Shown in pieces: positions 8,533 through 53,688 of a DNA stretch of 64,000 bases (its first letter is position 1; each line of letters begins with the position of its first letter). The notes under the pieces are model-generated. The model worked only from the letters and a program-made list of their open reading frames with translations, did no database searches and was not told where the DNA came from. The DNA is from Eledone cirrhosa (Eukaryota): assembly GCA_964016885.1 (NCBI GenBank), contig OZ024754.1, positions 15,314,001 to 15,378,000 on the forward strand. Direction: 5' to 3'. Made by a program: the position numbers and the translations under genes.

Positions 8533-8586
<54 letters not shown>

Positions 8587-8847
8587 TTTCTTTATTAACC
8601 ACAAGGGTTTACATAAAGTAGACATTAAGGACAGTGCAGGACAATGCAGGACGGTACAAATGGGCATTTCTGCGTGTAAAAAAAACAAAAACAGAGGATG
8701 TAACAAAAATAACAATGAAAATAACAATGAAAAATTCCCCAATAGGGGGGAGACTTCGGAGGGACATTTGTGGAGAAAGCCCAGTAAAAAGCCACAATGA
8801 CCCTGACCACCAAGGCAAGTGCCCTCTCCCAGTTTTCCACCTTTAGT

Positions 8848-11800: not shown

Positions 11801-12267
11801 GCTAATCCCACACAGTCCCAGCGTGCATCTAAGATCCCGTTCCAGTCGCCCACTAACACTAAAGAGCGGGACGTTCCAAGAAAGGTCTCCAGACGCCGGA
11901 AGAAATCAGGCCGCCCTGCTCCTGTCGGGGCATAGACGGCCACTAGCCTGAAAGCTTGCCCGTCTCCGCTGGTCACGTCCAGCACCACCAGCTTACCCTC
12001 TGGGTCCAGGAAGATGGCCCGTATGGCGAGATCCAAACCTCTCCGAAAAAGCACAGCAACTCCTCCACCCGATCCAGGACGGCTGGGAGATGCGTACACA
12101 TCGTAGCCGCCGAAGATCGGTGCGAAGGCCCGTGCTTCGGAGATTCTGGTCTCGCTGATGGCCACTACATCTATGTTTAGTGACCTGAGGTCGTTGAGCA
12201 GGTGACCCTGCTTCCATGACGACCCCAAGCCACGCGCATTTATGCTGCCTATTCTGAGTGAGGTCAT
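8848..12267 (-). CDS. LINE ORF2: APE endonuclease + reverse transcriptase + C-terminal zinc finger (1139 aa, intact)
   Basis: APE motifs SINARGL, SETR, VYAP, GDWN, LDR, TDH. RT motifs KSPGLDG, FRPITLLN, DQSKAFDRV, RQGCPLS, YADD. C-terminal CPRC..ETVLHALVQC. Confidence 0.95.
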   Translation of the reverse strand: MTSLRIGSINARGLGSSWKQGHLLNDLRSLNIDVVAISETRISEARAFAPIFGGYDVYASPSRPGSGGGVAVLFRRGLDLAIRAIFLDPEGKLVVLDVTSGDGQAFRLVAVYAPTGAGRPDFFRRLETFLGTSRSLVLVGDWNGILDARWDCVGLADRGGGCKSLTNLLRRFELSDRYRLDFPNVPMWTWTNRIGSSRSYLDRVFCREIDRSSIGCPQFKIVSYTDHKFVTCVLDLDRLHRRGPGYWKLNASLPARKAYRDRISELVKRALTGAIVNNKWWFALKRAIRIESIRFSKALAIEKNRAEGELVRKLDEALSKGIATDVLAAKLALDQFFNANHEGCVVRARVRALRHEGTKAVQWARVAEARRGNKATIRSLVDHDGRMLLDPGQMCEAFQRHFAQLFGGSGGPGRGMDFSVYLDGLPRLSATEARCCEKPITAAEIREAMTGCTRGKSPGLDGLPYELYVQMPDLFGGLLADVYCNWQQNGRIPSSVSRGAVALLRKDPNKGDNIDNFRPITLLNTEFKILAKVLAKRLALVVGGLVGEAQTCAIPDRSIHDNLHLMRYIVERVAREPGTGGSLINLDQSKAFDRVDHRYLAAVLRAAGFGPVFRGWIAAMHSDICSVVRVNGHLSEPFNIMRSVRQGCPLSSLLYVLTLEPLLHKLETLRGVPRELGCGRSVSAYADDVTVVVSNAKHIEAIGTTLREYEAVTGAMINQEKSVGLQLGTWRGRSMPSNSVVGRWTDGPVKLLGVWFGPDLQTDKNWDEVTSRVASLTQKWAERKLSLKGRAEVANAYIASVICYRLTVVPCPKPRLTALERLLFRFLWKGRAPMVRRSICCQHPLRGGLGMPWLMMRRHALRLRHLHLFLDGDQVWSPFARRVFPQLVSLTELQSWVKRRPRGSAWRLECLQALTALDQSGNVIGGNSTLAFYRGLVEGKSDDVLGETLGVDENQLANLFGRTFGPGPMDNFQKSLAWQCYRGALPVRDKLYRHGGAVSRACPRCAQGDETVLHALVQCPKIADLWVYVEHLLSRLGRIQLSSESIVRIAPPSSFSREGQAVFICLVAMAKEIVWWTRLKGLKTSTYLFGDALIDFFKFHLKRKIRVEKEVLSSQHFVERWVREARMARVNGPTLSIYL

Positions 12268-12302
12268 GTTTAAAATAGAGTGGAAAAGATGGGAAAGACC
12301 AC

Positions 12303-14375: not shown

Positions 14376-14606
14376 GTTTTTTTGTTTAAAATGAAATTTT
14401 GGGTACAAAACCCCAATAACTGGTTATTTAACCCCGAAGGGCCAAATAACGGACAGAAAGACCCCTCTCACGAGGAGGAGGGTGTCTTTATCAACAATTT
14501 GGTTCAAGTTTTAAACAATTTACAATTGTTTTAACGGTTAAAAATTACTATACCTTACAGAGCCGAGCCTCCGTCAACCATGGCATTCAATAATAATAAT
14601 AATAAT

Positions 14607-15822: not shown

Positions 15823-15843
15823 AATAATAATAATAATAATAAT

Positions 15844-23009: not shown

Positions 23010-23373
23010 CGTGCGTATGTATGTATATATTATGTATATGTCACCTAATCTGTCACCGAATCACACTCTATTTGTCCTCATTTGCGTGAGAGCAAATAAA
23101 TACACATAATTAATTATGATATGGGACTTTATTATTTATATTATTATTATTATTATTGAATGCCATGGTTGACGGAGGCTCGGCTCTGTAAGGTATAGTA
23201 ATTTTTAACCGTTAAAACAATTGTAAATTGTTTAAAACTTGAACCAAATTGTTGATAAAGACACCCTCCTCCTCGTGAGAGGGGTCTTTCTGTCCGTTAT
23301 TTGGCCCTTCGGGGTTAAATAACCAGTTATTGGGGTTTTGTACCCAAAATTTCATTTTAAACAAAAAAACAAC

Positions 23374-25477
23374 ATGGCTACGAAAAAGAAATTTCATACG
23401 TCACTCCCACTCATTCCGTCTTCTTCTTCCTCAATCATCACTACAGCAGAGAGAAGATTGTCTCTCTCCCTCCCTTCTTTAAATGTGTCTCTCTCCCTCC
23501 CTTCTCTTTCGCAAGTGACGAAAGAAAAGAAAAGTCTCGTGCAAAGCGTGCAAGGTTTCTCCACGACGACGACGACAGCGACGAAACAGGTGTGCGGGAA
23601 ATACGAAAACCCAGTTCATTCGTCTGACGTCAGGAATAATAGCAGTAGCAGCCGTAATAACAACAGCAACAGTGACAATGAAAACAACAGTAGCAGCCGC
23701 AACAGCATCACCAGCAGCATAAACAACAACAGCATTAGCAGCAGCAACACCAACAACAACCACAGCAACAGCGGCGGAGGCAGTAGTCGTAGTACCTGCA
23801 GCAACAACAAAAGTACCAGCAGCTCTGACGACAACAACAACAGCAGAGAAAAACCAATCTCATCTGCAGGTATTGCGAAAAACTTGGAAACAATCCTCAT
23901 AACAAATGAGGAATTAGAGGAAGCGAAGAAGATGGTGACAAAGAACGGACACCGAGCAATCTGCAAGGCAGCGGAAAAATTTTTCGAAACCCAAGAGCAC
24001 TGTACGGTCACGTACCGTACAGTAAGTACAAAATCCCGTAGGGTGGAAAGAGCCACAGAGGCCCAAATACAAAAAGCCTTGGGGTCTGTGTGGCAGCGGA
24101 AAACGCACATCACCCGAGGGAAAAAAATATGCCACCGTAGACGTACTTTTTGCCACACCCCAGGAGGCAAAGGCCCAATCAGTAGTGACCCTAAGGAGCG
24201 AGGAAATGGTGTTGGTGCCCTCCTACTGCGGGCAAAAAATTGTGAGAGTCAAACTGACCCCCCCCCCCCCCCCCCCCGGAATGACCCCTTCTTGGCTGGC
24301 CGCGTCTGTCCTCGTCGGAATCGAGGAGAAAACAACTGTACTGCAAGTACAGAAAAAAGTAAGAGAAGATTGGGTCGGCTCCTCCATTGAGATGCTAATC
24401 CAAACCAACCAGGAGTGCATCGAAGCTATCCCGGATGTGATAGACTTCGATAACGGCACTCAACTGCCCATAAGTGTTGAGGGCAAACGCCCGAAATGCT
24501 TTCGCTGTGGATCGAAGACTCACCTCAGGGCCTTCTGCAACGAGAAGACCCTGAGAAAGGAGAAAACCCCCCTCCTTCCGAATCCGGCTCCACGGCTACC
24601 AGCAACAGGACAAGCGGCAACCAGGAACGATAGGCCCGTGGCACCCATACCCACTCCACGGAAATCAAAAACAGCAGCAGCAGTGGAAATATTAACAACA
24701 ACAACAGCAATACCAAATGCAGCTGCAACAGAGACTCCAGTGCAAACATCACCAACAACAACAAGTGAAAGAGTGGAGCTGGTACCCCTCCCCGACCTCA
24801 CAGAATCAGACATGGAGTGTGAGGTGGGAGAGGGATGGCAAAAGGTCGTAAGAAGGCACAAACGCAGAAGCAGCGCATCGTCGCCTTTGAAAAGGGAGGA
24901 AAGAAATGAGAAAAGGGTAAAGTCTACTGCAAAGAGACCCACAGCAGCAACAACACCAACACCATCACCACCCACACTAGCACCACCATCACCACCGGCG
25001 ACAACCCCACCGCCAACAACACCTTCAACACCACCACCACAAGCACCAACATCGCAAACACAACAACAAAACACACACACCCAGTAACAACGACAAGAAA
25101 ATAGCAGAACAACACCCCACCCCCAGAAAAACAAATGCACGGCAATAAATACACACAACAAGAAACTAATGACTTACATAATTGAACACACAGACATTTC
25201 ACAACAGGACTACATAATACCAGCACCAATCAAAACGCCAACTAACATAAGACTGCTAAAAATAGCACAGAAACAATACACAAACATTAAAACGAAATTC
25301 CCCAACGCAGTTGGTGAATTCAGGGACCTAGGAGGAACCATCAATCGAAGAGTATACTCAGACATTCTCTTAGAAGAGCCGACGACCAGCCGAAGGGACG
25401 ATTCAACGGTCCCTTCACCAGACGATCAAGTGAAAAGGGATGTAAAAACCATCCCTCCTCTACCAAAAGTACGGTAA
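23374..25477 (+). pseudogene. LINE ORF1 of copy B, disrupted
   Basis: Frameshift in an A-run at about 24121-24128, expanded C-run at about 24257-24277, CAA>TAA at 25085-25087. CCHC knuckle retained. Confidence 0.85.
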
Positions 25478-25512
25478 GTGGTCTTTCCCATCTTTTCCAC
25501 TCTATTTTAAAC

Positions 25513-28500
25513 ATGACCTCACTCAGAATAGGCAGCATAAATGCGCGTGGCTTGGGGTCGTCATGGAAGCAGGGTCACCTGCTCAACGACCTCAGGTCAC
25601 TAAACATAGATGTAGTGGCCATCAGCGAGACCAGAATCTCCGAAGCACAGGCCTTCGCACCGATCTTCGGCGGCTACGATGCGTACGCATCTCCCAGCCG
25701 TCCTGGATCCGGTGGAGGAGTTGCTGTGCTTTTTCGGAGAGGTTTAGATCTCGCCATACGGGCCATCTTCCTGGACCCAGAGGGTAAGCTGGTGGTGCTG
25801 GACGTGACCAGCGGAGACGGGCAAGCTTTCACGCTAGTGGCCGTCTATGCCCCGACAGGAGCAGGGCGGCCTGATTTCTTCCGGCGTCTGGAGACCTTTC
25901 TTGGAACGTCCCGCTCTTTAGTGTTAGTGGGCGACTGGAACGGGATCTTAGATGCACGCTGGGACTGTGTGGGATTAGCGGATAGGGGTGGAGGGTGCAA
26001 GAGCCTCACCAACCTGCTCAGGCGTTTTGAACTGTCTGACAGGTACCGATTGGATTTCCCGAATGTGCCAATGTGGACTTGGACAAACCGCATAGGGTCA
26101 TCCAGATCATATCTAGATAGAGTATTTTGTAGGGAAATAGATAGGTCTAGCATAGGCTGTCCACAATTCAAGATAGTCAGCTACACGGACCACAAATTCG
26201 TGATCTGTGTGCTTGACTTAGATAGGCTTCATAGACGAGGACCCGGCTACTGGAAGATAAACGCGTCCTTACCAGCGCGCAAGGCCTACAGAGACCGGAT
26301 TAGCGAACTAGTTAAGCGGGCGTTGACGGGGGCCATCGTCAACAACAAGTGGTGGTTTGCTCTGAAAAGAGCGATTAGAATAGAATCGATTAGGTTTAGT
26401 AAGGCTTTAGCAATAGAGAAAAATAGAGCAGAGGGAGAACTAGTTAGAAAATTAGACGAGGCGCTTAGCAAAGGCATTGCGACCGACGTGCTTGCGGCGA
26501 AATTGGCCCTTGACCAATTCTTCAATGCAAAGCACGAAGGCTGCGTTGTCAGAGCTAGGGTGCGTGCTCTCAGACACGAGGGGACGAAAGCCGTTCAATG
26601 GGCCCGAGTGGCGGAGGCGCGTCGTGGCAACAAAGCCACGATCCGGTCTTTGGTGGACCACGACGGGCGCATGCTACTCGATCCCGGGCAAATGTGTGAA
26701 GCTTTTCAGCGACACTTCGCTCAGCTGTTCGGGGGCAGCGGGGGGCCGGGTAGAGGGATGGACTTTAGTGTCTACCTCGACGGACTGCCACGGCTCTCGG
26801 CCACTGAGGCGAGGTGTTGCGAAAAGCCGATAACAGCCGCTGAAGTAAGGGAGGCAATGACTGGCTGCACAAGGGGTAAATCGCCTGGTTTGGATGGTCT
26901 GCCCTATGAACTTTACGTACAGATGCCAGACTTGTTCGGAGGCCTCTTGGCGGACGTCTACTGCAACTGGCAACAGAACGGGAGAATTCCCAGTTCTGTG
27001 AGCCGAGGAGCGGTGGCACTGCTGAGAAAGGATCCGAACAAGGGGGATAACATAGACAATTTCCGGCCCATAACTCTGCTAAACACAGAGTTCAAGATTT
27101 TGGCCAAGGTGCTAGCAAAGAGGTTGGCGCTTGTCGTTGGTGGTCTGGTGGGAGAGGCGCAGACATGCGCCATTCCCGACAGATCCATCCACGACAACCT
27201 CCACCTCATGCGATACATCATAGAGAGGGTAGCTAAGGAACCTGGCACGGGTGGGTCCTTGATCAATTTAGATCAGTCGAAAGCTTTCGATAGGGTCGAC
27301 CATCGTTACCTAGCGGCAGTCCTGAGGGCGGCTGGTTTTGGGCCCGTCTTCAGAGGCTGGATCGCTGCCATGCACAGCGACATCTGCTCTGTGGTGAGAG
27401 TGAACGGTCACCTGTCGGAACCGTTCAACATCATGCGCTCGGTCCGCCAAGGATGTCCCCTCTCGTCCCTCTTGTACGTATTGACTCTCGAGCCATTACT
27501 GCACAAACTGGAGACGTTGAGGGGAGTCCCGCGCGAACTAGGATGCGGAAGATCCGTGTCAGCATATGCGGACGATGTCACCGTAGTGGTGTCGAACGCC
27601 AAACACATCGAGGCGATCGGCACTACACTAAGAGAATACGAAGCGGTGACAGGAGCAATGATCAACCAGGAAAAGTCAGTGGGCCTGCAGCTCGGCACCT
27701 GGAGAGGCAGGTCCATGCCGTCCAACAGCGTCGTCGGGCGCTGGACGGACGGACCGGTTAAATTGCTAGGGGTCTGGTTCGGTCCGGACCTCCAGACGGA
27801 CAAAAACTGGGACGAGGTGACGAGCAGGGTGGCTTCTCTCACCCAGAAATGGGCGGAGAGGAAGCTATCCCTGAAAGGTCGAGCGGAGGTGGCTAACGCG
27901 TACATCGCGTCTGTCATCTGCTACCGCCTAACCGTCGTACCTTGTCCTAAGCCTCGCCTGACTGCGCTGGAGCGTTTGCTCTTTCGCTTTTTGTGGAAGG
28001 GACGTGCTCCGATGGTCAGGCGGTCCATCTGTTGTCAACACCCGCTACGTGGAGGGCTGGGCATGCCGTGGCTGATGATGCGCAGGCACGCGCTCAGGCT
28101 ACGACATCTCCACCTCTTCCTCGACGGTGATCAGGTGTGGTCGCCGTTTGCTAGACGCGTTTTTCCCCAGCTCGTTTCCTTAACGGAGCTGCAGTCCTGG
28201 GTCAAGCGAAGACCGAGAGGGAGCGCCTGGAGACTGGAATGTCTTCAGGCGCTCACAGCCCTCGACCAATCGGGCAATGTGATCGGTGGAAACTCCACCT
28301 CGGCGTTCTATAGAGGATTAGTGGAGGGGAAAAGCGACGACGTACTTGGGGAAACTCTAGGCGTCGACGAAAATCAACTAGCCAATCTCTTCGGAAGAAC
28401 TTTCGGGCCAGGGCCTATGGACAACTTCCAGAAATCTCTGGCCTGGCAGTACTACCGAGGAGCCTTGCCAGTTCGGGATAAACTCTACAGGCATGGAGGT

Positions 28501-28932
28501 GCCGTCAGCCGGGCATGTCCGAGATGCGCACAGGGCGACGAAACCGTCCTGCACGCACTCGTCCAGTGTCCGAAAATTGCTGACTTGTGGGTTTATGTCG
28601 AACACCTGCTGTCGCGTTTAGGACGGATCCAGCTATCAGCTGAGTCCATTGTGAGGATTGCCCCGCCCTCCTCCTTTAGCCGGGAAGGGCAGGCAGTTTT
28701 TATCTGTCTGGTGGCCATGGCGAAAGAGATAGTATGGTGGACACGTTTGAAAGGGCTGAAGACGAGCACTTACCTCTTCGGTGATGCTCTGATTGACTTT
28801 TTCAAATTTCATTTGAAAAGGAAAATCAGAGTAGAGGGGGAAGTGCTCTCTTTCCAGCATTTTGTTGAAAGATGGGTGAGAGAAGCAAGAATGGCCCGAG
28901 TGAATGGGCCGACTCTGAGTATATATCTGTAA
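25513..28932 (+). CDS. LINE ORF2 APE-RT (1139 aa, intact)
   Basis: Same motifs as 8848-12267 with only scattered amino-acid differences. Confidence 0.95.
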   Translation: MTSLRIGSINARGLGSSWKQGHLLNDLRSLNIDVVAISETRISEAQAFAPIFGGYDAYASPSRPGSGGGVAVLFRRGLDLAIRAIFLDPEGKLVVLDVTSGDGQAFTLVAVYAPTGAGRPDFFRRLETFLGTSRSLVLVGDWNGILDARWDCVGLADRGGGCKSLTNLLRRFELSDRYRLDFPNVPMWTWTNRIGSSRSYLDRVFCREIDRSSIGCPQFKIVSYTDHKFVICVLDLDRLHRRGPGYWKINASLPARKAYRDRISELVKRALTGAIVNNKWWFALKRAIRIESIRFSKALAIEKNRAEGELVRKLDEALSKGIATDVLAAKLALDQFFNAKHEGCVVRARVRALRHEGTKAVQWARVAEARRGNKATIRSLVDHDGRMLLDPGQMCEAFQRHFAQLFGGSGGPGRGMDFSVYLDGLPRLSATEARCCEKPITAAEVREAMTGCTRGKSPGLDGLPYELYVQMPDLFGGLLADVYCNWQQNGRIPSSVSRGAVALLRKDPNKGDNIDNFRPITLLNTEFKILAKVLAKRLALVVGGLVGEAQTCAIPDRSIHDNLHLMRYIIERVAKEPGTGGSLINLDQSKAFDRVDHRYLAAVLRAAGFGPVFRGWIAAMHSDICSVVRVNGHLSEPFNIMRSVRQGCPLSSLLYVLTLEPLLHKLETLRGVPRELGCGRSVSAYADDVTVVVSNAKHIEAIGTTLREYEAVTGAMINQEKSVGLQLGTWRGRSMPSNSVVGRWTDGPVKLLGVWFGPDLQTDKNWDEVTSRVASLTQKWAERKLSLKGRAEVANAYIASVICYRLTVVPCPKPRLTALERLLFRFLWKGRAPMVRRSICCQHPLRGGLGMPWLMMRRHALRLRHLHLFLDGDQVWSPFARRVFPQLVSLTELQSWVKRRPRGSAWRLECLQALTALDQSGNVIGGNSTSAFYRGLVEGKSDDVLGETLGVDENQLANLFGRTFGPGPMDNFQKSLAWQYYRGALPVRDKLYRHGGAVSRACPRCAQGDETVLHALVQCPKIADLWVYVEHLLSRLGRIQLSAESIVRIAPPSSFSREGQAVFICLVAMAKEIVWWTRLKGLKTSTYLFGDALIDFFKFHLKRKIRVEGEVLSFQHFVERWVREARMARVNGPTLSIYL

Positions 28933-29192
28933 ACTAAAGGTGGAAAACTGGGAGAGGGCACTTGCCTTGGTGGTCAGGGTCATTGTGGCTTTTTACTGGG
29001 CTTTCTCCACAAATGTCCCTCCGAAGTCTCCCCCCTATTGGGGAATTTTTCATTGTTATTTTCATTGTTATTTTTGTTACATCCTCTGTTTTTGTTTTTT
29101 TACACGCAGAAATGCCCATTTGTACCGTCCTGCATTGTCCTGCACTGTCCTTAATGTCTACTTTATGTAAACCCTTGTGGTTAATAAAGAAA

Positions 29193-29245
<53 letters not shown>

Positions 29246-29247
29246 AA

Positions 29248-30129: not shown

Positions 30130-30300
30130 TCATTGCCACCACAGTAGAACATTCCTCACAAAGTCTCTCCATGATTCGCCATTTTCTATTGCCCCTGGCA
30201 ATTCCTCCCTACTGAAAATTGTATCGTCTGAGAGTTGATCGATAAAGGTTCGAGCAGGTCTTCCGCCACTGCGTTTCCAGTGAGTTGGTTCCCACAATAG
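30130..30300 (-). mobile_element. RTE-like LINE 3' fragment
   Basis: Minus strand LLWEPTHWKRSGGRPARTFIDQLSDD. Related to 43215-43400. Confidence 0.65.
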
Positions 30301-30328
30301 CTAGTTGCTATCTATCTATCTAGCTAGC

Positions 30329-30423
<95 letters not shown>

Positions 30424-30425
<2 letters not shown>

Positions 30426-30655
30426 TTCTTTATTTGCCACAAGGGCGCACAAGAAAAGGGGACAATACAAAGACACATGCCGGGGATTTTACATACAATC
30501 GTGTAAAAATATTATTAAAACAAATTTAACAATCGAAATCCCCAATAAGGGGGAGGCGTTACAAATGGGTTGTTTAATACAACGTCAATAGAACAACCTT
30601 CAACTCCAGGAGCATGTTATGCAAGTGCTCCTTTCTTCCTTTTGCTCTCTTCTTC
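30424..30655 (-). mobile_element. Tx1-like LINE 3' UTR only (GATA family)
   Basis: Matches 36541-36770. 3' end abuts (GATA)n at 30328-30423. Confidence 0.85.
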
Positions 30656-31602
30656 CACAAGGGCGTACAAAAATGGGTCATTACAAGACGTGAAGGCGGG
30701 GGTTTTACATAAAATCTTTAATAATAATAATGAATAACAATGAACTATATATAAAATAAAACAATCGACATCCCCAATAGGGGAGACGTTACAGCGGCGT
30801 TATTTTACACCCCGCGGATAGAACAACCCTCAACACCAGGAACACATTTTGTAGGTGTTCCCGTCTTCCCTCTGTTTGTGTTCCTCAACCAAGAGGTTTA
30901 TATACAGTGAAGGCCCATTCACTCGGGCCATTTTCGCTACATTCACCCACCTTTCAGCGAATTTACTGGGGTGTAGCACCTCTCTCTCCACTCTCACTTT
31001 CATTCTGAAGTGGTATTTAAAGGGGATGAGTTGTTGACGGGAGAGAAAGGTGTTTGCCCTCAGTCCTTTTAACATCGTCCACTATATTACCTCTTTCGCC
31101 ATAACCACCAGTCTGAGGAACACCGCATCTCCTTCATTCTTAAATGAAGGTGGCGGGGTGATCCTCACGATGTACTCGGCTGACAACTGGATGCGTCCCA
31201 CACGTGACAGTTGCTGTTCGACATAATTCCACAGGTCGGTCACTCCTGGGCACTGAACAATTACGTGCAGAATGGTTTCAATGTCCTGATCGCATCTTGG
31301 ACAGGTCCTTTTGGCAGGATCTCTGCCAGGGCGCCCGTACCTGTAGATTTTGTCTCGAACTGGCAGAGCTCTTCGGTAGCACTGCCAGGCCAGAGACCTC
31401 TGGAAGTTATCCATAGGCCCTGGACGGAAAATCCTCCCGAACAGACTGGTTAGTTCGTCCTCTTCGATGCCTAGAGTTTCCCTGAGAACGACATCGCACT
31501 TATACTCCACTAAACCCCTATAGAATGTCAAAGTGGAGTCTCCACTGATTGCCGTTTCCGCTCGACAGAGGGCTGTGGGAGCCTGAAGGCACTCGATGTA
31601 CC
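30652..31602 (-). mobile_element. 5'-truncated Tx1-like LINE (ORF2 C-terminus + 3' UTR)
   Basis: MDNFQRSLAWQCYR, CPRC..ETILHVIVQC. 5' junction lies in (GATA)n. Confidence 0.85.
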
Positions 31603-31641
<39 letters not shown>

Positions 31642-31690
31642 GACAGATAAATATATAGACAGACAGACAAATAGATAAATAAATAGATAG

Positions 31691-34600
31691 ATTTCTTTAT
31701 TAGCCACAAGGGCGCACAAGAAATGGGACAATACAAAGACATGGCGGGGGTTTTACTTACAATCGCGTAAAAAATGTTAACATAAAAATTCAACAATCGA
31801 AATCCCAATAGGGAGGAGGCGTTACAAATGGGTTGTTTTACACCCCGTTGATAGAACAACCCTCAACTCCAGGAGCATGTTTTGCAAGTGCTCCTTTCTT
31901 CTTTTCCCTATCTTCCTCAACCTACAGGTGTATATACAAAGAAGGCTCAATCACTCGGGCCATTCTCGCCACATTCACCCACCTTTCAGTAAATTTACTG
32001 GGATGTAGCACCTCTCTATCCACTCTGATTCTCCTTCTGAAGTGGTATCTAAAGAAGGGAATGAGCTGTAGTCCGAAGAGAAAGGCATGTCCTCAGTACT
32101 CTCAATCTCGTCCACCATATTACCTTTGTCACCATAGCCACCATACAGAGGAAAACCGCCTCTCATTCGTTTTTAAATGAAGGTGGCGGTTTGATCCTTA
32201 CTATGGACTCCGCAGTCAACTGGATGCGTCCCACACGTGACAGCAGTTGTTCTCCGTAGTTCCACAGGTCCGTTACGCCCGGGCAGTGTACAATTGCGTG
32301 CAGGACGGTCAAGCGGTAGTAGATGACGGACGCTATGAAAGTGTTCGTCACCTCCGCTGACCTTTCAAGGATAGTTTTCACTCTGCCCACTTCTGAGTGA
32401 GCGCAAATACCTTGGCCGTGTCCTCGTTCCAGTTTTTCTCCACCTGGAGGTCTGGACCGAACCAGACCCCGAGCAATTTCACCGGTGCTTCCATCCAGCG
32501 TCCGATGACGCTGTCGGACGGCATAGGTTTGCTTCTCCACGTTCCGAGTTGCAAACCGACAGACTTGTCCGGGTTCAGTTTTGCTCCTGTAAGCTTTTCG
32601 TATTCCTTTAGTAAGTTGCCGATCGCCCCGATTTCCGAGGTTTCCGACACCATTACTGTCACGTCATCAGCATAAGCCGGCGCCGCTTTTCACAGTCCTG
32701 GTTCCAAATGGATACCCTGCAAAAGCTCCAACTTCCGCAGTAGTGGCTCTAGAGTCAATACGTACAGAATGGAGGAGAGAGGGCATCCCTGTCGAATGGA
32801 ACGCGTGATTGCGAACGGCTCCGATAGGTAGCCGTTCACCTTGACTGTCGAACAGATGTTGGTATGTATGGCTGTGATCCAGCCTCCGAAAACGGGACCG
32901 AAACCGGCCGCCTTGAGAACCGCTTCCAAGTATCGATGGTCGACCCTATCAAAAGCCATAGACTGATCTAAATTGATCAGAGCCCCACCGAAGCCGGGTT
33001 TACACCCCACCCTCTCTAAGATGTATTGCATGAGGTGGAGGTTATCGTGTATGGACCTGGTCGGGATTGCACACGTTTGCGCTTTCCCTATCAGGTTTTC
33101 GACGACAAACGCCAGCCTTGTTGCTAGGACCTTGACCAAAATCTTTAACTCTGTGTTGAGCAGAGTTATGGGCCTGAAATTGTTTATTTCGTTCCCCTTG
33201 TTCTCGTCTTTCCTGATCAGCGTTACTACGCCCTTGCCTGCAGAACTTGGAATTGTCCCGTTCTGCTGCCGATTGCAGTAGTCGACTTTGAGGACGCCAG
33301 AGAACAAGTCCGACATGCCTATGTAAAACTCATAGGGTAGACCATCTAGACCGGGTGATTTGCGCTTCCCGCAGCGGCCCATAGCGTCCCGTATCTCAGT
33401 GGCTGTGATCGGTCTTTCGCAGATCTCGGCGTCCATGCTCGAGAGACACAACAGGCCGTCGAGGTATGAATCAAAGTCCATCGCTCCGTTCGGTGCACCA
33501 TCGTTCTGCTCAAACAGTCGCGCAAAGTGCCACTGAAAGGCCGCGCACATCTTCCTGGGTTCAAGTAGCACGCGCCCGGTTTGGTTTTTCAAAGACCGAA
33601 TCGTGAACTTGTTGCCACTTTTCGCTTCCGCCACTCGGGCCCAGCTAACAGCTTTTGCTCCCTCGTTTCCTAGAGCACGTGATTTACTTCTGACCACGCA
33701 GCCTTCGTGTTTCGCGGCAAAGGACTGGTCCAGTGCCGTTATCGATGCTAGCACTCTAGCTGCGTTGCCACTCCTAAGCGCCTCTTCTACCTTGGCTACT
33801 AGTTCTGTTTCTGATTTGTTTTTCTGTAAAGCTAATTCTCTGCTAAACCCTATCGACTCTACTCTAACTGCTCTCTTGAGAGAGTACTACCATCTATTGT
33901 TGACGATGGCTCCCGCTTAACTCTTGCTTAAGTAATCTACTTATCCGGTCACTGTAGGCTATTCGTGCCGGCAACGACACGTTCAGCTTCCAGTATCCGG
34001 GTCCTTGTCTACGTATTCTATCACGGTTGACTACGCAGACGACTAGTTTGTGATCTACGCAGACGACTAGTTTGTGATCCAGGTGCATTTGTGGACAGCT
34101 TAACTTCTTCTTGTCCTTCTCTATAATGAAAACCCTATCTAGATACGATCTAGATGTCCCGCTGCGGTTGGCCCACGTCCACGGGAAATCTAGTCGATAT
34201 CTATCGGCCAGTTGGAATTGGCCGATTAGATTTTTGAGGCTGTTGCACCCCGCTCTACTGGGACATGCTCTCACATAGTCCCATTGTGCATGTAGGATAC
34301 ATTCCAGTCCCCCACTAAAAGCAAGGAGCGAGACGTTCCCAGAAAAGACTCTAGACGTTTAAAGAAGTCTGGCCGCGATTGTGATTGCCCGGTCGGGCAT
34401 AAACGGCCATCAGTCTGAATGCTCCACCTCCAATACTGTTCACGTCTAGGACTACCAGTCTACCCTCCGGATCCAAGTGTACTTGCTGTGCTTTGAGATC
34501 CAGGTTTTCCGAAACATAACAGTCACTTCCCCTCCACCTTCCGGCTGACAGAGAGATGCGTAGATCTCAAAGTCATTGAAGATGGGGGTTAGTTACTGCC

Positions 34601-36291
34601 TGTTGTGGATCCTGGACTCGGTGATGGCTATTACATCTATACCGTGTGACCTAAGGTCGTTTAAAATTTGGCCCTGTTTCCAGGGCATCCCTAGGCATTT
34701 CACGCTTCCAACTCGTAAGTCAGCCATGTTGGTGGAGAAGAGAAAAGGACGAAAAGGTGCACTTATCGTTTCCTGGAGACCGGGTTGTTCAATCTCCATT
34801 TCAGTTCTGGTGGAGGTATTGAGTGGGGTGGGGAAACATTTCAACAGGACACAGTTTATTGGTTTTTGGCAGCGGTTGCCAACGTCCTGTGAAAACTGTT
34901 CTTTCTTTTTTCTGAAAGGTTTCTATCGAAACCCTTATTAGTTTTAGGTGTGGTTGAGAGTCTGCTTTGACAAAAGTTTTCCCTTCAGTTTCCAGTTTGG
35001 GGTCCGGTGAGATGACCTCCATCAAATTGTTGTTGTTGGTGTTGATGTATGTATATTGTTGTTTTTGTTTTGGTTGTGTTGTTTTAGTTTGTTGTTCGTC
35101 TGTGAGTTTTCTTTTTTGTGTTTGGGGTGGTGTTGGTGTTTGTTTTGTTGGTAGGGGGAGGTTTGGTTGTGGTGTTGTTTGTGTTGTTGTTTGTGTCTGT
35201 GGTTGTGTGTTGGTGTTGGTGATTGGAGTTTTGGGGATTTTGTGGTGTCTCTTTTTTTTGTTTTTTGGATTTCCGAGGCTCTTCTTCTCCTTCACTTAAA
35301 GAAGGGGAAGCAGCCTCATCTGTTGATGAATAATCATCATCAGAAGTGTGGGGTAGGGGTATGTTGTGTGGTGATGGTGTTTTGGTGTGTGTGTTTGTGG
35401 TAGTGTTGTATTGAGTGGGATGGGTGGGGCTGTGTTCTTCAGGGATGCTGTCTGTGTTTTTTCTGTTGTTCGTGTTTTTTCTGTTGTTTGTGGTTTCCAA
35501 ATTTGTCCCTGCCCACCTGACCGAAAGAATTGTGTCACTTTCTGGCTCTATGAATCCTTCTAAGATCCACCAAATGTTGATGTTTGGTGGTATGTTATTT
35601 ATTTTAATTTTTTGTGTTCTTTTTCCCATGTAAGTAGGGGGAAAGGTGTGTGTTTTTGTGATGACTGGTGTAACAGAATGCTTTTGTGCGAGGGCCTCGC
35701 TTTTAAAAGGTACCGAAATACTTCCATAAATACTTCCCTCTGCATAAAATCAATGTCTGTCCGGCAGATCATCTTTCAATGTGGTTTCAATTTCCCCTTG
35801 ACTGAGGAATACCGGCTTTTTTATTTGATTTGAGACAGTTCTGAAGGTTACCGTTCTTCGAACTGTTTCTTGTTTAATTTCCAAGGGTGAGTTTATTTGA
35901 AACCCACTTTTTTCTTCAAATGTTATAAATTGTCTCGCATCAGACAACATCTGTTTTGAATTTCTGATGTCCAACTCTTTATATTCCGTTTTTTTTTATT
36001 ACAGTCTGTGCGAATGTTGTTTTTTCAGTTTTGTTGTTGTTGTTGGTTTTTTCGTGTGTAGTTAATTGTTTCAATTTCTGCATTTTCTGTATTTTTTGCT
36101 GTCTTTTGTGGGCTGTTATTTTCATCTTTTGTTGTGTAAATATCGATTTTTTTACGAAACGAAGTTTTGTTGTTGTTTGTCTCCTTAGATACTTTTATGG
36201 AAGTAGAGGGAGATATAACGCTTATATCTGCCTCTTCCTCTCACTTCTCGCTGTCTAGCGCTCTCTGTAAGTCACATATTGTTAAAGTTAG
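31691..36291 (-). mobile_element. degenerate near-full-length Tx1-like LINE (GATA family) with internal deletions
   Basis: Fragmented ORF1 (about 34800-36000) and ORF2 (about 31920-34727) homologous to 36541-42350. (GATA)n on both sides. Confidence 0.88.
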
Positions 36292-36336
36292 GTAGATAGA
36301 TAGATAGATAAATTTCTTTATTTGCCACAAGGGCGC

Positions 36337-36530
36337 AAATAATGTTTCTACTTTTGGCACAAGGCCAGCAATTACCTCAGTGCATTACTGGTACTTTATC
36401 TTATCGACCCCGTAAGGATGAAAGACAAAGTTAACCTCTGAGGATTAGAACTCAGAACATAAAGGGCCATAACTCTATGCTGCAAAGCATGGTGTCTGAC
36501 GCTCTACCGATACTGCCAAACCACTGGCCT
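36337..36530 (-). mobile_element. full-length tRNA-derived SINE fused to a 25-nt Tx1 3' end (36312-36336)
   Basis: Same family as 29248-29437. The fused unit is flanked by GATA repeats. Confidence 0.85.
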
Positions 36531-36775
36531 AGATAGATAGATTTCTTTATTAGCCACAAGGGCGCAACAAGAAAGGGGACAATACAAAGACATGCCGGGG
36601 ATTTTACATACAGTCGTGTAAAAAATATAAAAACAAACAATTTCAACAATCGAAATCCCCAATAGGGGGGAGGCGCCACAAATGGGTTGTTTAATACCCC
36701 GTCGATAGAACAACCCTCAACTCGAGGAGCGTGTTGTGCAAGTGCTCCTTTCTTCCTTTTGCTCTCTTCCTCAAC

Positions 36776-39700
36776 CTACAGGCTTATAAACAGAGAAGGC
36801 CCAATCAATCGGGCCATTTTCGCTTCATTCACCCACCTTTCAGTAAATTTACTGGGGTGCAGTGCCTCTCTCTCCACCCTGATTCTCCTTCTAAAGTGAT
36901 ACTTAAAGAAGGGAATCAATTGTTGTCCGGAGAGAAAGGCATCTGTCCTCAGTCCTCTCAACCTCGTCCACCATATAACTTCTTTCACCATAGCCACCGT
37001 ACAGAGGAAAACCGCCTCTCTTTCGTTTTTGAAAGAGTCTGGCGGTTTGATCCTTACTATGGACTCGGCAGCCAACTGTATTTGTCCCATACGCGACAGC
37101 AGTTGTTCTGCATAGTTCCACAGGTCGCTTACGCCCGGGCAGTGTACAATTGCGTGCAGAACTGTTTCAATGTCCTGCGCACATCTTGGACACGTCCTCT
37201 TGGAAGGATCCCTGCCAGGGCGTCCGTGCCTGTAGATCTTGTCACGAACCGGTAGAGCTCCTCGGTAGCACTGCCAGGCCAGGGACCTCTGGAAGTTGTC
37301 CATAGGTCCCGGGCGGGAAGTCCTACCAAACAGACTGGTGAGCTCATCATCTTCGACGCCCAGAGTCTCTCCGAGCACGTCGTCGCCCTTGTAACGTACA
37401 ATCCCTCCATAGAATGTCGAAGTGGAGTCTCCACTGATTGCTGCGCCCGCTTGCCAGAGGACTGTGAGCGCCTGAGCGCATTCAATGTGCCAGGCGCCCA
37501 TCGTTTTCGGTCTTTTCTTCACCCAGGACTGCAGCTCCGTTAGCGAGACGAGCTGTGGGAAAGCCTGTCTTACAAACGGTGCCCACACCGGTTGGGGGTC
37601 GGTGAGGAATACCTGGAGATGCCGCAGCCTCAGCGCATGTTTGCGCATCATCAGCCATTGCATTCCCAGCCCTCCGTTGGAAGGGTGCTGACAGCAGACG
37701 GATCTCCTCACCAGCGGAGCCTGCTTCTTCCACAGAAACTGGAAGAGCATGCGTTCCATCTTGGCGAGGTGTTCACGGGGACAAGGCACGACAGTCAAGC
37801 GGTAGTAGATGACGGACGCTATGAAAGTGTTCGCCACCTCCGCTCGACCTTTCAAGGACAGTTTGCACTCTGCCCACTTCTGAGTGAGTGCAAACACCTT
37901 GGCCGTGACCTCGTTCCAGTTTTTCTCCACCTGGAGGTCTGGACCGAACCAGACCCCTAGCAATTTCACCGGTCCGTCCGTCCAGCGTCCAACGACGCTG
38001 TCGGATGTCATCGGTTTGCCTCTCCACGTACCGAGTTGCAAACCGACAGACTTGTCTGGGTTTAGTTTTGCTCCCGTCAGCGTTTCGTATTCTTTCAGTA
38101 TGTTGCCGATCACCCCGATTTCCGAGGTGCTCGACACCATTACTGTCACGTCATCGGCATAAGCCGACGCCGCTTTGCGCAGTCCCGGTTCTAGGGGGAT
38201 GCCCTGCAACAGCTCCAACTTCCGCAGTAGTGGCTCTAGAGTCAATACATACAGAATGGAGGAGAGAGGGCATCCCTGTCGAATGGAACGCGTGATTGCG
38301 AACGGCTCCGATAGGTAGCCGTTCACCTTGACCCTCGAGCAGATGCTGGTGTGCATCGCCTCGATCCATCCTCTGAACACGGGACCGAAACCGGCCGCCT
38401 TGAGAACCGCTTCCAAGTATCGATGGTCGACCCTATCGAATGCCTTAGACTGATCCAAGTTGATCAGAGCCCCACCGAAGCCGGGTTTACTACCCACCCT
38501 CTCTATGATGTATCGCATGAGGTGGAGGTTGTCGTGTATGGACCTGGTCGGGATTGCACACGTTTGCGCTTTCCCGACCAGGTTCTCGACGACAAGCGCC
38601 AACCTCGTCGCTAGCACCTTGGCCAAAATCTTTAACTCTGTGTTGAGCAGAGTTATGGGCCTGAAGTTGTTAATTTCGTCCCCCTTGTTCTCGTCTTTCC
38701 TGATCAGCGTTACTACGCCCTTGCCTGCAGAACTGGGAATTCTCCCGTTCTGCTGCCAATTGCAGTAGACGGCTTCGAGGACGCTAGAGAACAAGTCCGG
38801 CATACCTATGTAAAATTCGTAGGGTAGACCATCTAGACCGGGTGACTTGCGTTTCCCGCAGCGACCCACAGCGTCCCGTATCTCAGTGTCCGTGATCGGT
38901 CTTTCGCAGAACTCGGCGTCCGTGTTCGAGAGACGCGGCAGGCCGTCGAGGTATGCACTAAAGTCCATTGCCCCGTTCGGCTCACCGTCGTTCTGCTCAA
39001 ACAGTCGCGCAAAGTGCCGCTGAAAGGCCGCGCACATTTGCTTGGGGTCAAGTAGCACGCGTCCGTTTTGGTCTTTCAAAGACCGAATCGTGGACTTGTT
39101 GCCACTTTTTGCCTCCGCCACTCGGGCCCAGCTGACAGCTTTCGCTCCTTCGTTTCCTAGAGCACGTGTTTTGCTTCTGACCACGCAGCCTTCGTGTTTC
39201 GCATCGAAGAACTGGTCCAGTGCCGTTCTCGACGCTAACACTCTAGCCGCGTTGCCACTTCTAAGTGCCTCCTCTACCTTGGCTACTAGTTCTCTTTCTA
39301 TTCTGTTTTTCTCTAAGGCTAACTCTCTGCTATACCCTATCGATTCTATTCTAATTGCTTTCTTGAGAGAGTACCACCATCTATTGTTGACGATGGTTCC
39401 CGTTAACTGTTGCTTGACTAGTCTACTTATCCGTTCACTGTAAGCTTTACGTGCCGGCAACGACACGTTCAGCTTCCAGTATCCGGGACCCTGTCTATGT
39501 ATTCTATCACGGTTAACTAAGCAGACGACTAACTTGTGATCTGAATAGGCAACCATGTGCATTCGTGGACAGCTTAACATATCCTTGTCCCTTTCTCTAA
39601 TGAAGAACCTATCTAAATACGATCTAGATGTCCCACTGCGGTTTACCCACGTCCACTGTGGTGCAGTCGGGAAATCCAGTCGATACCTATCGGCCAGTTG

Positions 39701-40219
39701 GAATTGGCCGATTAAAGTTTTGAGGCTGTTGCACCCCGCTCTACTGGGACATGCTCCCACATAGTCCCATCGTGCATCTAGGATACCATTCCAGTCCCCC
39801 ACTAAAAGTAAGGAGCGAGATGTTCCCAGAAAAGACTCTAGACGCTTAAAGAAGTCTGGCCGTGATTGCGATTGCCCGGTCGGGGCATAAACGGCCACCA
39901 GTCTGAAGGCTCCACCTCCGATACTGTTCACGTCTAGGACTACCAGTCTACCCTCCGGGTCCAAGTGTACTTGCTGTACTCCGACGTCCAGGTTCTTCCG
40001 AAACATAACAGCCACTCCACCTCCACCTGGCTGACAGAGAGATGCGTAGATCTCAAAGTCGTCGAAGATGGGGGTTAGTTGCTGCCTGTTGTGGATTCTG
40101 GACTCGGTGATGGCTATCACATCCATACTGTGTGACCTAAGGTCGTTTAAAAGTTGGCCCTGTTTCCAGGGCATCCCTAGGCCACGCACATTCACGGTTC
40201 CAACTCGTAAACCAGCCAT
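36776..40219 (-). CDS. LINE ORF2 APE-RT (1147 aa, intact)
   Basis: TVNVRGL, TESR, VYAP, GDWN, LDR, SDH; RPITLLN, KAFDRV, RQGCPLS, YADD; CPRC..ETVLHAIVHC. Confidence 0.95.
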   Translation of the reverse strand: MAGLRVGTVNVRGLGMPWKQGQLLNDLRSHSMDVIAITESRIHNRQQLTPIFDDFEIYASLCQPGGGGVAVMFRKNLDVGVQQVHLDPEGRLVVLDVNSIGGGAFRLVAVYAPTGQSQSRPDFFKRLESFLGTSRSLLLVGDWNGILDARWDYVGACPSRAGCNSLKTLIGQFQLADRYRLDFPTAPQWTWVNRSGTSRSYLDRFFIRERDKDMLSCPRMHMVAYSDHKLVVCLVNRDRIHRQGPGYWKLNVSLPARKAYSERISRLVKQQLTGTIVNNRWWYSLKKAIRIESIGYSRELALEKNRIERELVAKVEEALRSGNAARVLASRTALDQFFDAKHEGCVVRSKTRALGNEGAKAVSWARVAEAKSGNKSTIRSLKDQNGRVLLDPKQMCAAFQRHFARLFEQNDGEPNGAMDFSAYLDGLPRLSNTDAEFCERPITDTEIRDAVGRCGKRKSPGLDGLPYEFYIGMPDLFSSVLEAVYCNWQQNGRIPSSAGKGVVTLIRKDENKGDEINNFRPITLLNTELKILAKVLATRLALVVENLVGKAQTCAIPTRSIHDNLHLMRYIIERVGSKPGFGGALINLDQSKAFDRVDHRYLEAVLKAAGFGPVFRGWIEAMHTSICSRVKVNGYLSEPFAITRSIRQGCPLSSILYVLTLEPLLRKLELLQGIPLEPGLRKAASAYADDVTVMVSSTSEIGVIGNILKEYETLTGAKLNPDKSVGLQLGTWRGKPMTSDSVVGRWTDGPVKLLGVWFGPDLQVEKNWNEVTAKVFALTQKWAECKLSLKGRAEVANTFIASVIYYRLTVVPCPREHLAKMERMLFQFLWKKQAPLVRRSVCCQHPSNGGLGMQWLMMRKHALRLRHLQVFLTDPQPVWAPFVRQAFPQLVSLTELQSWVKKRPKTMGAWHIECAQALTVLWQAGAAISGDSTSTFYGGIVRYKGDDVLGETLGVEDDELTSLFGRTSRPGPMDNFQRSLAWQCYRGALPVRDKIYRHGRPGRDPSKRTCPRCAQDIETVLHAIVHCPGVSDLWNYAEQLLSRMGQIQLAAESIVRIKPPDSFKNEREAVFLCTVAMVKEVIWWTRLRGLRTDAFLSGQQLIPFFKYHFRRRIRVEREALHPSKFTERWVNEAKMARLIGPSLFISL

Positions 40220-40260
40220 GTTGGTGAAGAAAAGTTGGAGAAAAAGGACGAAAGGTGCAC

Positions 40261-42001
40261 TTACCTTTTCGTTTCCTGGAGATCGGGTTGTTCAATCTCC
40301 ATTTGGATGCTGGATGGGGTGTTGGGTGGGGTGGGGAAACCTTTCAACAGGATGCGGTTGATGGGTTTGTGGCAGGGGTTGCCCACGTCCTGTGAAAATT
40401 TAATTTTCAGGTCTTTATAGGTTTCCATAGAAACCCTTATAACTTTAAGGTGTGGAGACGATTTTGCCTTGACGAAAGTTTTGCCCTCCGTCTCCACCTT
40501 GGGGTTTTGGGAGATGACCTCCATCAAACTCTTGTTGTTTGTGTTGATGTATACGTATTGTTGTTTGTGTTTTTGTTGTATTGTTTTAGTTTGTTGTTCA
40601 TCCGGGAGTTTTCTTTTTATGGTGGGTGCTTGTGTTTGGGGTGGTGTTGGTGCTGGTTTTGCTGATAGGGGGATGTTTGACTGTGGTGTTGTTTGTGTTG
40701 TTGTTTGTGTCTGTGGTTGTGTGTTGGTGTTGGTGATTGGAGTTTTGGGGGTTTTGTGGTGTCTCTTTTTTTGTTTTTTGGATTTCCGCGGTTCTCCCTC
40801 TTCTTCACTTAAAGAAGGAGAAGCAGCTTCATCCGTCGATGAATAATCATCGTCAGGTGTGTGGGGTAAGGGTATGTTGTGTGGTGGTGGTGGTGTTTCG
40901 GTATGTGTGTTTGTGGTAGTGTTTGATGGAGTGGGATGGAGTGGGGATGTGTTCTTCAGGGGTGTTGTCTCTGTTTTTTCTGTTGTTGTTGGTTGAGTGT
41001 CTGTTTGTTTTGGTGTGGTTGCTCGTTTCGTCTGTCGTTGTACTTGTGGTAGTGGTGGTGGTTGTTTTGGTTTTGGTGTTGGTAATAGCGTTTTTTTATG
41101 ATGTTGTTGTTGTGTGTTTGTGGACAAGAGGCTTTTAGGTGAGCTGTGCTACCACAGCGAAAGCAGGGAAATTTTCGTCCTTCTACCGAAATGTTTATTT
41201 TGTTGTTATTATCAATAACGACTCTTTCGGGTATTTTGGAGATTCTCTCCGGTTTCATTTGCAACAGAATCTCCAAATCGGTGCCCGCCCACCTTTGTCG
41301 AATGGATTTTCGTATCGAAAGTATTATGTCTGTTTCTGGCTCTACGAAGCCAGCCAAGATCCACCAGATGTTAATGCTTGGAGGTATGTTTTTTATTTTT
41401 ATTTTTTGTGTCCTTTTCCCCATGTATGTAGGGAAAAAGGTGTATGCTTTTGACACTATTGGTGTCACAGAGTTTTTTGGGGCGAGTGCCTCGCTTTTAA
41501 ACAGTACGGAAACACTTCCGTACTGTTTTCCTCGCTGGAGAAAATCGACATTTCCTAGAATCTCCTTGAAAGAATCTTCTATATCTGCTTGATTAACAAA
41601 TGTCGGTTTTCTTGACGAATTTGACACAGTCCTAAAAGTGACTGATCGGCGGTTTGTGTCTTCCTTTATTTCAAGGGGTGAGTTAATTCTAAACCCACCT
41701 CTTTCTTCGAAAGTTACAAATTTTCTCCCTTGCTGGAGCATATCTCTTGCGTTGGAGATATCAAGATTTATAAAATCTTGTTTCTTGTTCACTGTGTCAG
41801 CGAAAGACATTTTCTTTTTTTGTGTGGTGGTGTTGTTGATAATGATGTTATCGTTGTTGGAAATTTTATGTGTAGATGTATCTGTAGAGTTGTTGATGTC
41901 TTTTTCATGTGTATGTATGTCAATGGGTTTTTTGGCTGTGTTTTCCCGTGTGTTATTGTCATTTTTCTCCGCTTCGGCGGTAGAAATTGTAACATTTTCA
42001 A
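40261..42001 (-). pseudogene. LINE ORF1 (frameshifted) with CCHC knuckle
   Basis: Split over ORFs 41789-42001, 40956-41810 and 40261-41127. Contains CFRCGSTAHLKASC. Confidence 0.8.
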
Positions 42002-42347
42002 ATGTTGATATATTTTTTTTCTTTTGTGACAGTATCTATGGCAACGTCCATAGCAGCAGAAGCAGATATAACGTTAATATCTGCCTCTTTCTCTCTCTTT
42101 TCTCTATTAACGTTCTCCAGCGTTCTAGTGTTGCTCAAGTTTTTTACTTTGTAAAATCTGATATTTTAAAACAAATTTTTTAAAATAAAATGTTTGCCCC
42201 TACAGGGGCGAAAAATGGGATTACCACCCAGCTGACAATTCAGCTTGGGGGTTAATCTACAAAGTGTTGTATTTTTTCAAACAATTAGATCGGTTTTTTG
42301 CATAGAAATCAACAAAATACTTACCGGCGATATTCCACACGTCAGAC

Positions 42348-42407
<60 letters not shown>

Positions 42408-42408
<1 letters not shown>

Positions 42409-43132
42409 TGTTTCTTTTATTTGCCACCAGGGCATCAAAAGTGGGACAAGTACAAAGGGGGGAGTTTACACAAAAAGGCGTCCTGAATAAGGAGGAGGCA
42501 ATAACAATGTATAAAAATAAAATAAAATATAACAAAAAATAAAATTTATAACAAAATCCTCAATAGAGAGGAGGCGCCTTGGGGGGGGGGTCGCACACAC
42601 CCCCGAAAAAAAGTGTGCAACCCTTTTCCTCAGGAGCACAGAGAGGGGGTGCTCCCTCGTTCCTTCCTCTTTTCCACCTACAGGCTTATGTAAAGAGAAG
42701 GCCCATTCACACGGGCCATTCTCGCCACTTTCACCCACCTTTCATAAAAACGACTGGGGTGGAGCACCTCTCTCTCCATCCTGATCCTTCTTCCGAAATG
42801 ATATCGGAAGAAACGGACCAGTTGTTGGCCAGAGAGAAAGGTGCCTGACCTCAGTCCTTTCAGACGCGTCCACCATACAACTTCTTTCACCATGGCTATT
42901 ACGCACAGAAACACCGCCTCTCCTTCATCTTTGAGGGGGGGGGGGGGCGGCTTGATCATTACAATAGACTCGGTGGTCAACCGGATCGGTCCCACCCTTG
43001 ACAGCAGTTGTTCGACATAGCCCCACAGATCGGCTACGCCCGAGCAGTGTACCAATGCGTGTGCAACGGTTTCCTCGTCGCACACGCATCTGGGACAGAT
43101 CTTTTTGGCGGGGTCCCTACCCGGGCGCCCGT
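42408..43132 (-). mobile_element. 5'-truncated Tx1-like LINE of another subfamily
   Basis: CPRCVCDEETVAHALVHC...RVNGPSLYISL with a distinct 3' UTR. (GATA)n at both junctions. Confidence 0.87.
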
Positions 43133-43139
43133 GATAGAC

Positions 43140-43208
<69 letters not shown>

Positions 43209-43214
43209 TATAAG

Positions 43215-53618: not shown

Positions 53619-53688
53619 TATATATGTGTGTGTATAAGAGAGTGAGTGTGTGCGGGTGTGTCTGTGTCTGTGTGTGTTTGTGTGCGCA

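Follow-up and report, generated by a model that had tools for sequence, protein, structure and literature searches.

Among long interspersed elements (LINEs) with an APE-type endonuclease, target specificity is described as confined mainly to the Tx1 and R1 clades (PMC4640811), and the microsatellite targets published for Tx1 families are (TC)n for Kibi, (TTC)n for Koshi and (TTCC)n or (TTTC)n for the crocodilian Tx1-1_Crp group (PMC4494074). Here we describe a stack of six Tx1-clade copies lying in (GATA)n tracts, together with a sister family lying in (TTA)n, in a 64,000-bp stretch of contig OZ024754.1 (hereafter the window, to which all stack and sister-family counts refer). The reading that we favour, and consider likely, is that of a (TATC)n-specific Tx1 family whose insertion proceeds by target-primed reverse transcription, with probable help from repeat RNA made by read-through.

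An earlier note on this DNA had named Kibi and Koshi as established microsatellite-specific families; the criterion for such a family in PMC4494074 is that more than 20% of genomic copies are flanked by the target repeat. The elements of the window resemble Kibi, Koshi and Tx1-1_Crp in being Tx1-type APE LINEs in a microsatellite, the same strategy; those described systems use units that are pure pyrimidine on one strand and come from vertebrates (teleosts for Kibi and Koshi), whereas the units here are TATC and TTA, in what is likely an octopod. With flanks of (TATC)n and (TTA)n, the families are set apart from Kibi and Koshi by target. Neither 'GATA' nor 'TATC' occurs in the text of PMC4494074, and no TATC/GATA- or TTA-specific Tx1 was found in the papers searched, which lie outside Repbase, Kojima and Fujiwara 2004, and Fig. 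3 and the supplement of PMC4494074, any of which may name one; passages of PMC8967140, PMC10294476 and PMC4758252 mention Tx1 without targets. In Octopus vulgaris, 80 L1-Tx1 families have been described, 13 of them recently active (PMC13282606). These are of the same class, in a probably closely related host, and their consensus sequences may well include the families of the window; the text and supplement, where 'target' and 'GATA' do not occur, report no target preference for them (PMC13282606). The strategy being known, the locus would add an invertebrate case of microsatellite-specific Tx1, with two repeat units that seem not to have been reported before.

Six Tx1-clade copies and a sister family

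The copies (c1 to c6) lie head-to-tail, all on the minus strand, from 30424 to 43133, and with its outer tracts the stack spans 30329-43212:

30329..30423, tract A, (GATA)n of about 24 units, adjoining the 3' end of c1
30424..30652, minus strand, c1, 229 bp, 5'-truncated, 3' untranslated region (UTR) only, 89% identical to c5; 5' end fused to the 3' end of c2
30653..31603, minus strand, c2, 951 bp, 5'-truncated, ORF2 residues about 910-1147 with one stop, 79% identical to c5
31603..31690, tract B, (GATA)n with some decay, adjoining the 5' end of c2 and the 3' end of c3
31691..36288, minus strand, c3, 4.6 kb, near-full-length, decayed (stops, frameshifts), 88% identical to c5
36289..36311, tract C, (GATA)4-5; 5' flank of c3 and 3' flank of c4
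36312..36337, minus strand, c4, the terminal 26 nt of Tx1, 26/26 identical to the end of c1
36338..36530, minus strand, full-length short interspersed element (SINE), 193 bp, tRNA-like head and (ATT)n tail, joined directly to c4
36530..36540, tract D, (TAGA)3, adjoining the 3' end of c5 and the 5' end of the SINE-c4 unit
36541..42345, minus strand, c5, full-length element, about 5.8 kb
36776..40219, minus strand, ORF2 of c5, intact, 1147 aa: APE 8-228, reverse transcriptase (RT) 513-756, C-terminal zinc finger 979-1034
40261..42051, minus strand, ORF1 of c5, with CCHC knuckle CFRCGSTAHLKASC and two one-base shifts in homopolymer runs (42013-42020, 41091-41097)
42344..42410, tract E, (GATA)16; 5' flank of c5 and 3' flank of c6
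42411..43133, minus strand, c6, 723 bp, 5'-truncated, the most diverged subfamily, 71% identical to c5 in nucleotides
43134..43212, tract F, (GATA)20; 5' flank of c6, tail of no Tx1 copy

Minus-strand insertions had been placed by the earlier note at 30424, 30652, 31691, 36312, 36541 and 42408, and these coordinates held to within 3 bp; at 36312 a Tx1 3' end does sit on GATA, but only 26 nt are Tx1 and the remainder is the 193-bp tRNA-type SINE. A shared 3'-end motif (CCTTGTGG..AATAAAGAAA) has seven matches in the window, where 100 shuffles give an expectation of 0.00, with five of them on the minus strand of the stack (30424, 31691, 36312, 36541 and 42411, where the tract edge is 42408) and the other two in the sister family (8586 and 29172). 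The second copy, c2, is without its last ~11 nt and is joined to the 5' end of c1; c3 carries an internal deletion of ~620 bp at 32309; and the 5'-most 200 bp of c5 are counted as part of the element because their read depth equals that of the neighbouring ORF1 region. Four of the six copies are clearly 5'-truncated and none has long terminal repeats (LTRs), as looked for in Tx1-clade elements. At the outer edge of tract A (30308-30331) the repeat turns through an inverted (CTAT)3(CTAG)3 into (ATAG)n, a small palindromic junction. Two fragments of ~170 bp (30130-30300 and 43232-43397), 77% identical to each other and with the same orientation and 5' boundary, bracket the stack and are the only two such matches in the window; by a motif in their translation they resemble the C-terminus of an RTE-type LINE.

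The sister family, of which the earlier note made no mention, is present as two copies:

8583..14588, minus strand, T1a, full-length, with both reading frames intact (ORF1 690 aa, ORF2 1139 aa); flanked by (TTA)n at 8533-8584 and 14589-14608
23158..29196, plus strand, T1b, full-length, 98.4% identical to T1a with the same first base; (TTA)n at 23129-23157 and 29195-29244

The sister ORF2 is 68% identical to that of c5, and its APE domain 62%. The c5 ORF2 matched Pfam PF03372 and PF00078 above cut-off and the zf-RVT domain PF13966 below it (23.5 vs 27.5), the last being above cut-off in T1a. A structural model of the APE domain (pLDDT 94) had human L1-EN as its best fold match (TM 0.81), and the catalytic residues N10, E39, Y111, D142, N144, D203, D227 and H228 were conserved across 68 aligned sequences. 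Both ORF1s carry a gag-like CCHC knuckle (CFRCGSTAHLKASC in c5, CFRCGSKTHLRAFC in T1a), and neither gave a Pfam match; at 41090 the homopolymer run of the c5 ORF1 is longer in some contigs of two read runs.

Against two U2-inserted Keno-type ORF2s from metagenome loci (L003 and L008) the c5 ORF2 scored 402 and 458 bits, compared with 187-192 against human L1 ORF2p, and a quick RT tree, built after 3 of 84 candidate rows had failed the RT-region cut, placed c5 loosely with the Keno-type relatives (SH-aLRT 90; 87-90 at the relevant nodes, in a tree with no named Tx1 or L1 reference). Judged by these comparisons of sequence, the stack copies and the sister family are non-LTR retrotransposons of the Tx1 clade (L1 group), closer to Tx1 than to L1 proper. 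The two loci, which fit the description of Keno, are the closest relatives with a readable target, and share with the window families the size of ORF2 and an AATAAA near the 3' end; they differ in their target, U2, which is not a repeat, and in keeping an A-rich or poly(A) stretch before it, of which the window families have none. No Rfam family reached its gathering score anywhere in the window, so that insertion into U2 small nuclear RNA (snRNA), the mark of Keno, was not found there.

As the earlier note had stated, several subfamilies and ages are represented in the stack, with one intact 1147-aa ORF2: pairwise identity among copies is 59-89%, the 5' breakpoints differ, and condition ranges from intact to heavily decayed. 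Differences from c5 at codon positions 1/2/3 number 27/32/80 in c2, 36/35/78 in c3 and 32/25/55 in c6. Phylogenetically, the four GATA-flanked copies that retain coding sequence (c2, c3, c5 and c6) group together, separate from the TTA family, in a clade that also takes in one Argonauta hians protein (UFBoot 99), support being 74 for c2, c5 and c6 in a tree of the C-terminus only, and the three GATA-flanked copies with an aligned C-terminus have a GRPGRDP insertion in common. The head-to-tail order in one orientation, and a SINE-c4 unit that resembles a single template switch, might be taken as signs of tandem duplication, of unequal crossing-over between GATA tracts, of one multi-template reverse transcription or of mis-assembly, the order of the copies being taken from the assembly alone. 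We regard this as extremely improbable. Lengths and breakpoints differ, condition runs from intact to heavily decayed, and the divergence of 11-41% carries an excess at third codon positions; because of this identity range, the distinct breakpoints and the third-position excess, the copies must come from different working source lineages, which rules out both duplication of dead copies and a single multi-template event.

Repeat tracts at both ends: target or tail

Read on the sense strand of the element, the 3' ends of five of the six copies run into (TATC)n, the fused copy at 30652, without its last ~11 nt, being the exception that the earlier note had also recorded. That note had further placed the 5' junctions in GATA repeats, which proved correct in part: four of the six lie directly on (TATC)n (31603, ~36288, ~42345 and 43133, with an impure last tract unit at two of them), one reaches its tract through the full-length SINE, and the other is the fused c1/c2 junction. 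Five of the six tracts double as tails, either as the tail of one copy and the 5' flank of the next or as the outermost tail. Since the inner tracts of the stack serve both roles, tract F, (TATC)20 on the sense strand, is the sole pure 5' flank in the window, and its independence of any element's tail confirmed what had been noted of the GATA repeat upstream of the truncated copy ending at 43132. Set beside the threshold of more than 20% flanked copies (PMC4494074), the window gives 5/6 at 3' ends and 4/6 at 5' ends, as counts from one locus and not as a genome-wide fraction; the reads described below add two joints.

Runs of the AGAT class make up 316 of the 64000 bp (0.5%) and 6.7% of the bases in the 186 microsatellite runs. 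Seven of the 10 AGAT-class runs listed form the six junction tracts, one lies inverted beside the first tract, one inside c5 and one outside the stack. Other repeat classes outnumber them (AT 96, AC 18, AAT 14 and AAC 12, vs 9 in that count), and no end of the GATA family was found at any other repeat class in the window. Naive p-values for the coincidence of ends with tracts (1e-13, 1e-7) were rejected as evidence of targeting, since the argument would be circular for elements that create the tracts themselves.

The sister family repeats this arrangement with another unit, (TTA)n being present at both ends of both copies, and within the window neither family was found in the other's repeat. 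This both-ends pattern in 2/2 copies supports targeting, and two related elements, each aiming at its own short repeat, are the likely explanation. At all seven intact 3' ends of the two families AATAAA is followed by 4-6 nt and then by the repeat, and poly(A) is absent from every one of them. A terminal AATAAAGAAATC is common to the GATA and TTA families, the element ending in ...GAAATC. RNA folds of the 3' and 5' ends were no better than those of shuffles (z -0.48 to 0.21), and we therefore claim no structured 3' signal.

LINE retrotransposition begins with a nick made in one strand by the APE endonuclease, and the 3' OH so exposed serves as the primer for reverse transcription. For the (TATC)n-specific family, the APE domain is predicted to nick the (GATA)n strand near GA^TA and to prime reverse transcription there; (GATA)n is taken to be the primed strand because the insertion orientation is uniform, and the register of the nick is ambiguous by ~3 nt because the element ends in ...GAAATC. 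Transcripts are normally cleaved 10-30 nt past AAUAAA, and with AATAAA 4-6 nt from the element end cleavage of a transcript would fall in the repeat beside the element, giving it a (UAUC)n-poly(A) end. The (UAUC)n tail would then pair with the nicked strand and the cDNA would start within the repeat, which is proposed as the reason why poly(A) is missing from the DNA. Truncated cDNAs would be joined to upstream (TATC)n by short microhomology, and each insertion would split its tract into two new targets that slippage can regrow, so that the site would persist and the stack grow. The sister family would do likewise at (TTA)n.

We infer that the APE domain itself reads GATA, and some or even most of the aiming could fall to pairing of the RNA tail produced by read-through. 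Were the aim set mainly by RNA, an endonuclease of loose specificity for A/T-rich repeats would leave the (UAUC)n tail to select sites by pairing and to seed or lengthen the GATA tracts, an explanation that we consider unlikely. The 3' ends themselves are what it would lead one to expect, with no poly(A) at any of the seven, AATAAA 4-6 nt from the end, the terminal AATAAAGAAATC in both families and five of six tracts serving as tails; tail seeding is moreover documented for AATAG and CR1-L3 in snakes (PMC6050309). Those snake elements resemble the present ones in LINE 3' ends that adjoin a short repeat, AATAG, and differ in belonging to another clade and in having the repeat at the 3' tail, whereas here it lies at both ends (PMC6050309). 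If tail seeding were all, the 5' flanks should be unique, yet the repeat is there at four of six 5' ends in the GATA family and at both in the TTA family, and in the snake study enrichment of transposable elements beside ATAG runs was not found (PMC6050309). Purified Tx1L endonuclease, too, is itself described as sequence-specific (PMC1950540), and the predicted DNA-contacting hairpin of the APE domain (aligned residues 192-200) differs between the two families, reading VNRSGTSRS in c5 and ANRSGTSRS in c3 against TNRIGSSRS in T1a.

On its sequence this hairpin is the first candidate for the switch of target between the families. In Tx1L of Xenopus laevis, an element whose insertion is likewise directed by its APE to a specific sequence, the betaB6-betaB5 hairpin has been implicated in reading the target, and the hairpin is described as reading the minor groove in both L1-EN and Tx1L-EN; Tx1L differs in its target, the DNA transposon Tx1D, and in a hairpin of 11 residues as against 9 here (PMC1950540). 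Flexibility of the loop may matter more than its sequence (PMC1950540). Grafting of loops into L1-EN changed specificity only in part (PMC1950540). For the question of how the endonuclease of an APE-type LINE gains or switches specificity, the main value of the locus lies in its matched pair of intact ORF2s (68% identical overall, 62% in APE), which lie less than 30 kb apart on different repeats and make domain-swap and tail-swap tests direct.

A more speculative idea, to which we give little credence, is that the target is inherited as RNA and not encoded in protein, each copy, with its poly(A) signal at the extreme 3' end, transcribing its own microsatellite, which would guide the next insertion by base pairing. 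One landing in a new repeat would then found a family with a new address (TATC to TTA, with the TTA family keeping a vestigial ...GAAATC), and a LINE could be retargeted by swapping ~20 nt of its 3' RNA. The tracts at both ends also suggest that some octopod GATA and TAA microsatellites are landing sites and products of active LINEs; LINE-made microsatellites would bear on marker design and on repeat annotation.

The layout in raw reads

Reads from 4 of 24 listed runs were placed on c5, and from the resulting tables we inspected the top rows: 15 joints out of 617, 12 between-letter rows out of 168 and 24 loose ends out of 4916. Run X22 contains two joints in which a truncated copy leads into GATA and from there into the 3' end of another copy. 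One lies at 37295 (245 reads, 2 starts), the other at 37858 (110 reads). These positions match no breakpoint of the window (about 36775, 37228 and 37493, with deletion ends at 37165/37786), and since the X22 breakpoints do not exist in the window, the layout of copy, GATA and copy must recur at other loci. At 37858 GATAG is common to the tract and to sequence of the c3 type, the sort of microhomology that 5' junctions should show, and shorter overlaps of 1-2 nt fit c2 and the joint at 37295. The GATA family is highly multi-copy; in run X1 the 3' depth is ~37x the 5' depth, a ratio of summed contig depths that does not give the number of copies. Together with proteins of Tx1 type, several subfamilies, one orientation and repeated (GATA)n tracts, the two joints support the GATA-specific Tx1 family that the earlier note had proposed.

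Several observations pull the other way. The window is one locus, in which just one of six tracts is independent of a tail and two of six 5' ends are not directly on a tract. The X22 joints are visible only where GATA leads into another copy; they are evidence of stacking and do not measure how many copies have GATA on the 5' side, and the organism of that run may differ from the species of the window. Internal deletions account for 13 of the 15 joints inspected, and the remaining two are a 22-nt step back and a GATA joint. No GATA run was seen among the 24 loose ends inspected of the 4916; two that were compared in detail read as diverged relatives, and a cluster at 39211 (20,456 reads, with sister-family letters on the other side) gave an A/T-rich consensus with an agreement of 0.4. 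The lack of GATA at these loose ends, the richness of the window in mobile elements and the high copy number of the family would suit a local hotspot, in which the family inserts widely, insertions are tolerated here and most genomic copies have unique 5' flanks. We hold this to be decidedly improbable, as tolerance leaves unexplained five landings in a single orientation in tracts of 12-100 bp, the two read joints and the mirrored pattern at (TTA)n.

Relatives and neighbouring elements

The closest named proteins were hypothetical proteins of Argonauta hians, at 61-65% identity, from which an octopod host is likely, and a second protein search with the APE region gave two unnamed matches. A metagenome scan returned 55 loci, all distant (best segments mostly 22-35% identity), and no GATA- or TTA-flanked relative was found among the 28 of them whose ends were inspected; the 3'-end motif had no match in viral and prokaryote contigs. 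Four of these loci bear on snRNA genes. The Keno-like L003 and L008 end at U2 snRNA (Rfam U2; 4758-4885 and 5852-5977), L025 has a U1 match ~1.7 kb past ORF2 at the contig end (9202-9356), and L005 has a U1-like start near its 5' end (75-110), by eye and below the Rfam cut-off.

The SINE of the stack, which we take from A/B-box-like motifs read by eye in 36338-36530 to be of tRNA type, belongs to an abundant family with (ATT)n tails (36338-36530, 29247-29438, 52722-53619, 53904-54084, 57792-57944 and others), and several full-length copies begin directly after (TTA)n. An alignment of its last 27 nt to the Tx1 3' terminus matches 19 positions (score 30, reached by 0/2000 shuffles; an internal window of c5 scores 27), and from this resemblance the SINE may be mobilised by the Tx1 families of the window. 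In the SINE-c4 unit (36312-36530) it sits directly on the 26-nt Tx1 3' end with GATA tracts on either side; no other SINE copy found in the window carries that tail, and the unit looks like a template-switch chimera or else a later insertion.

An RT element of another type lies on the plus strand at 4795-8584, which we presume from a C-terminal CCHC and PD..D motif to be R4/Dong-like. It ends in (TAA)n and meets T1a tail-to-tail on the tract at 8533-8584, so that two unrelated LINEs use opposite strands of that repeat; a second, internally deleted copy (14871-15843) also ends in (TAA)7. In the 5' UTR of c5 (42197-42324, minus strand) a donor-like CGGTAAGT is followed after ~125 nt by an acceptor-like pyrimidine run with TGTAG, a possible intron or a chance pairing. 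Near the start of the window, at 932-1863, lies a minisatellite with a 52-bp unit in 18 copies and 93% matches.

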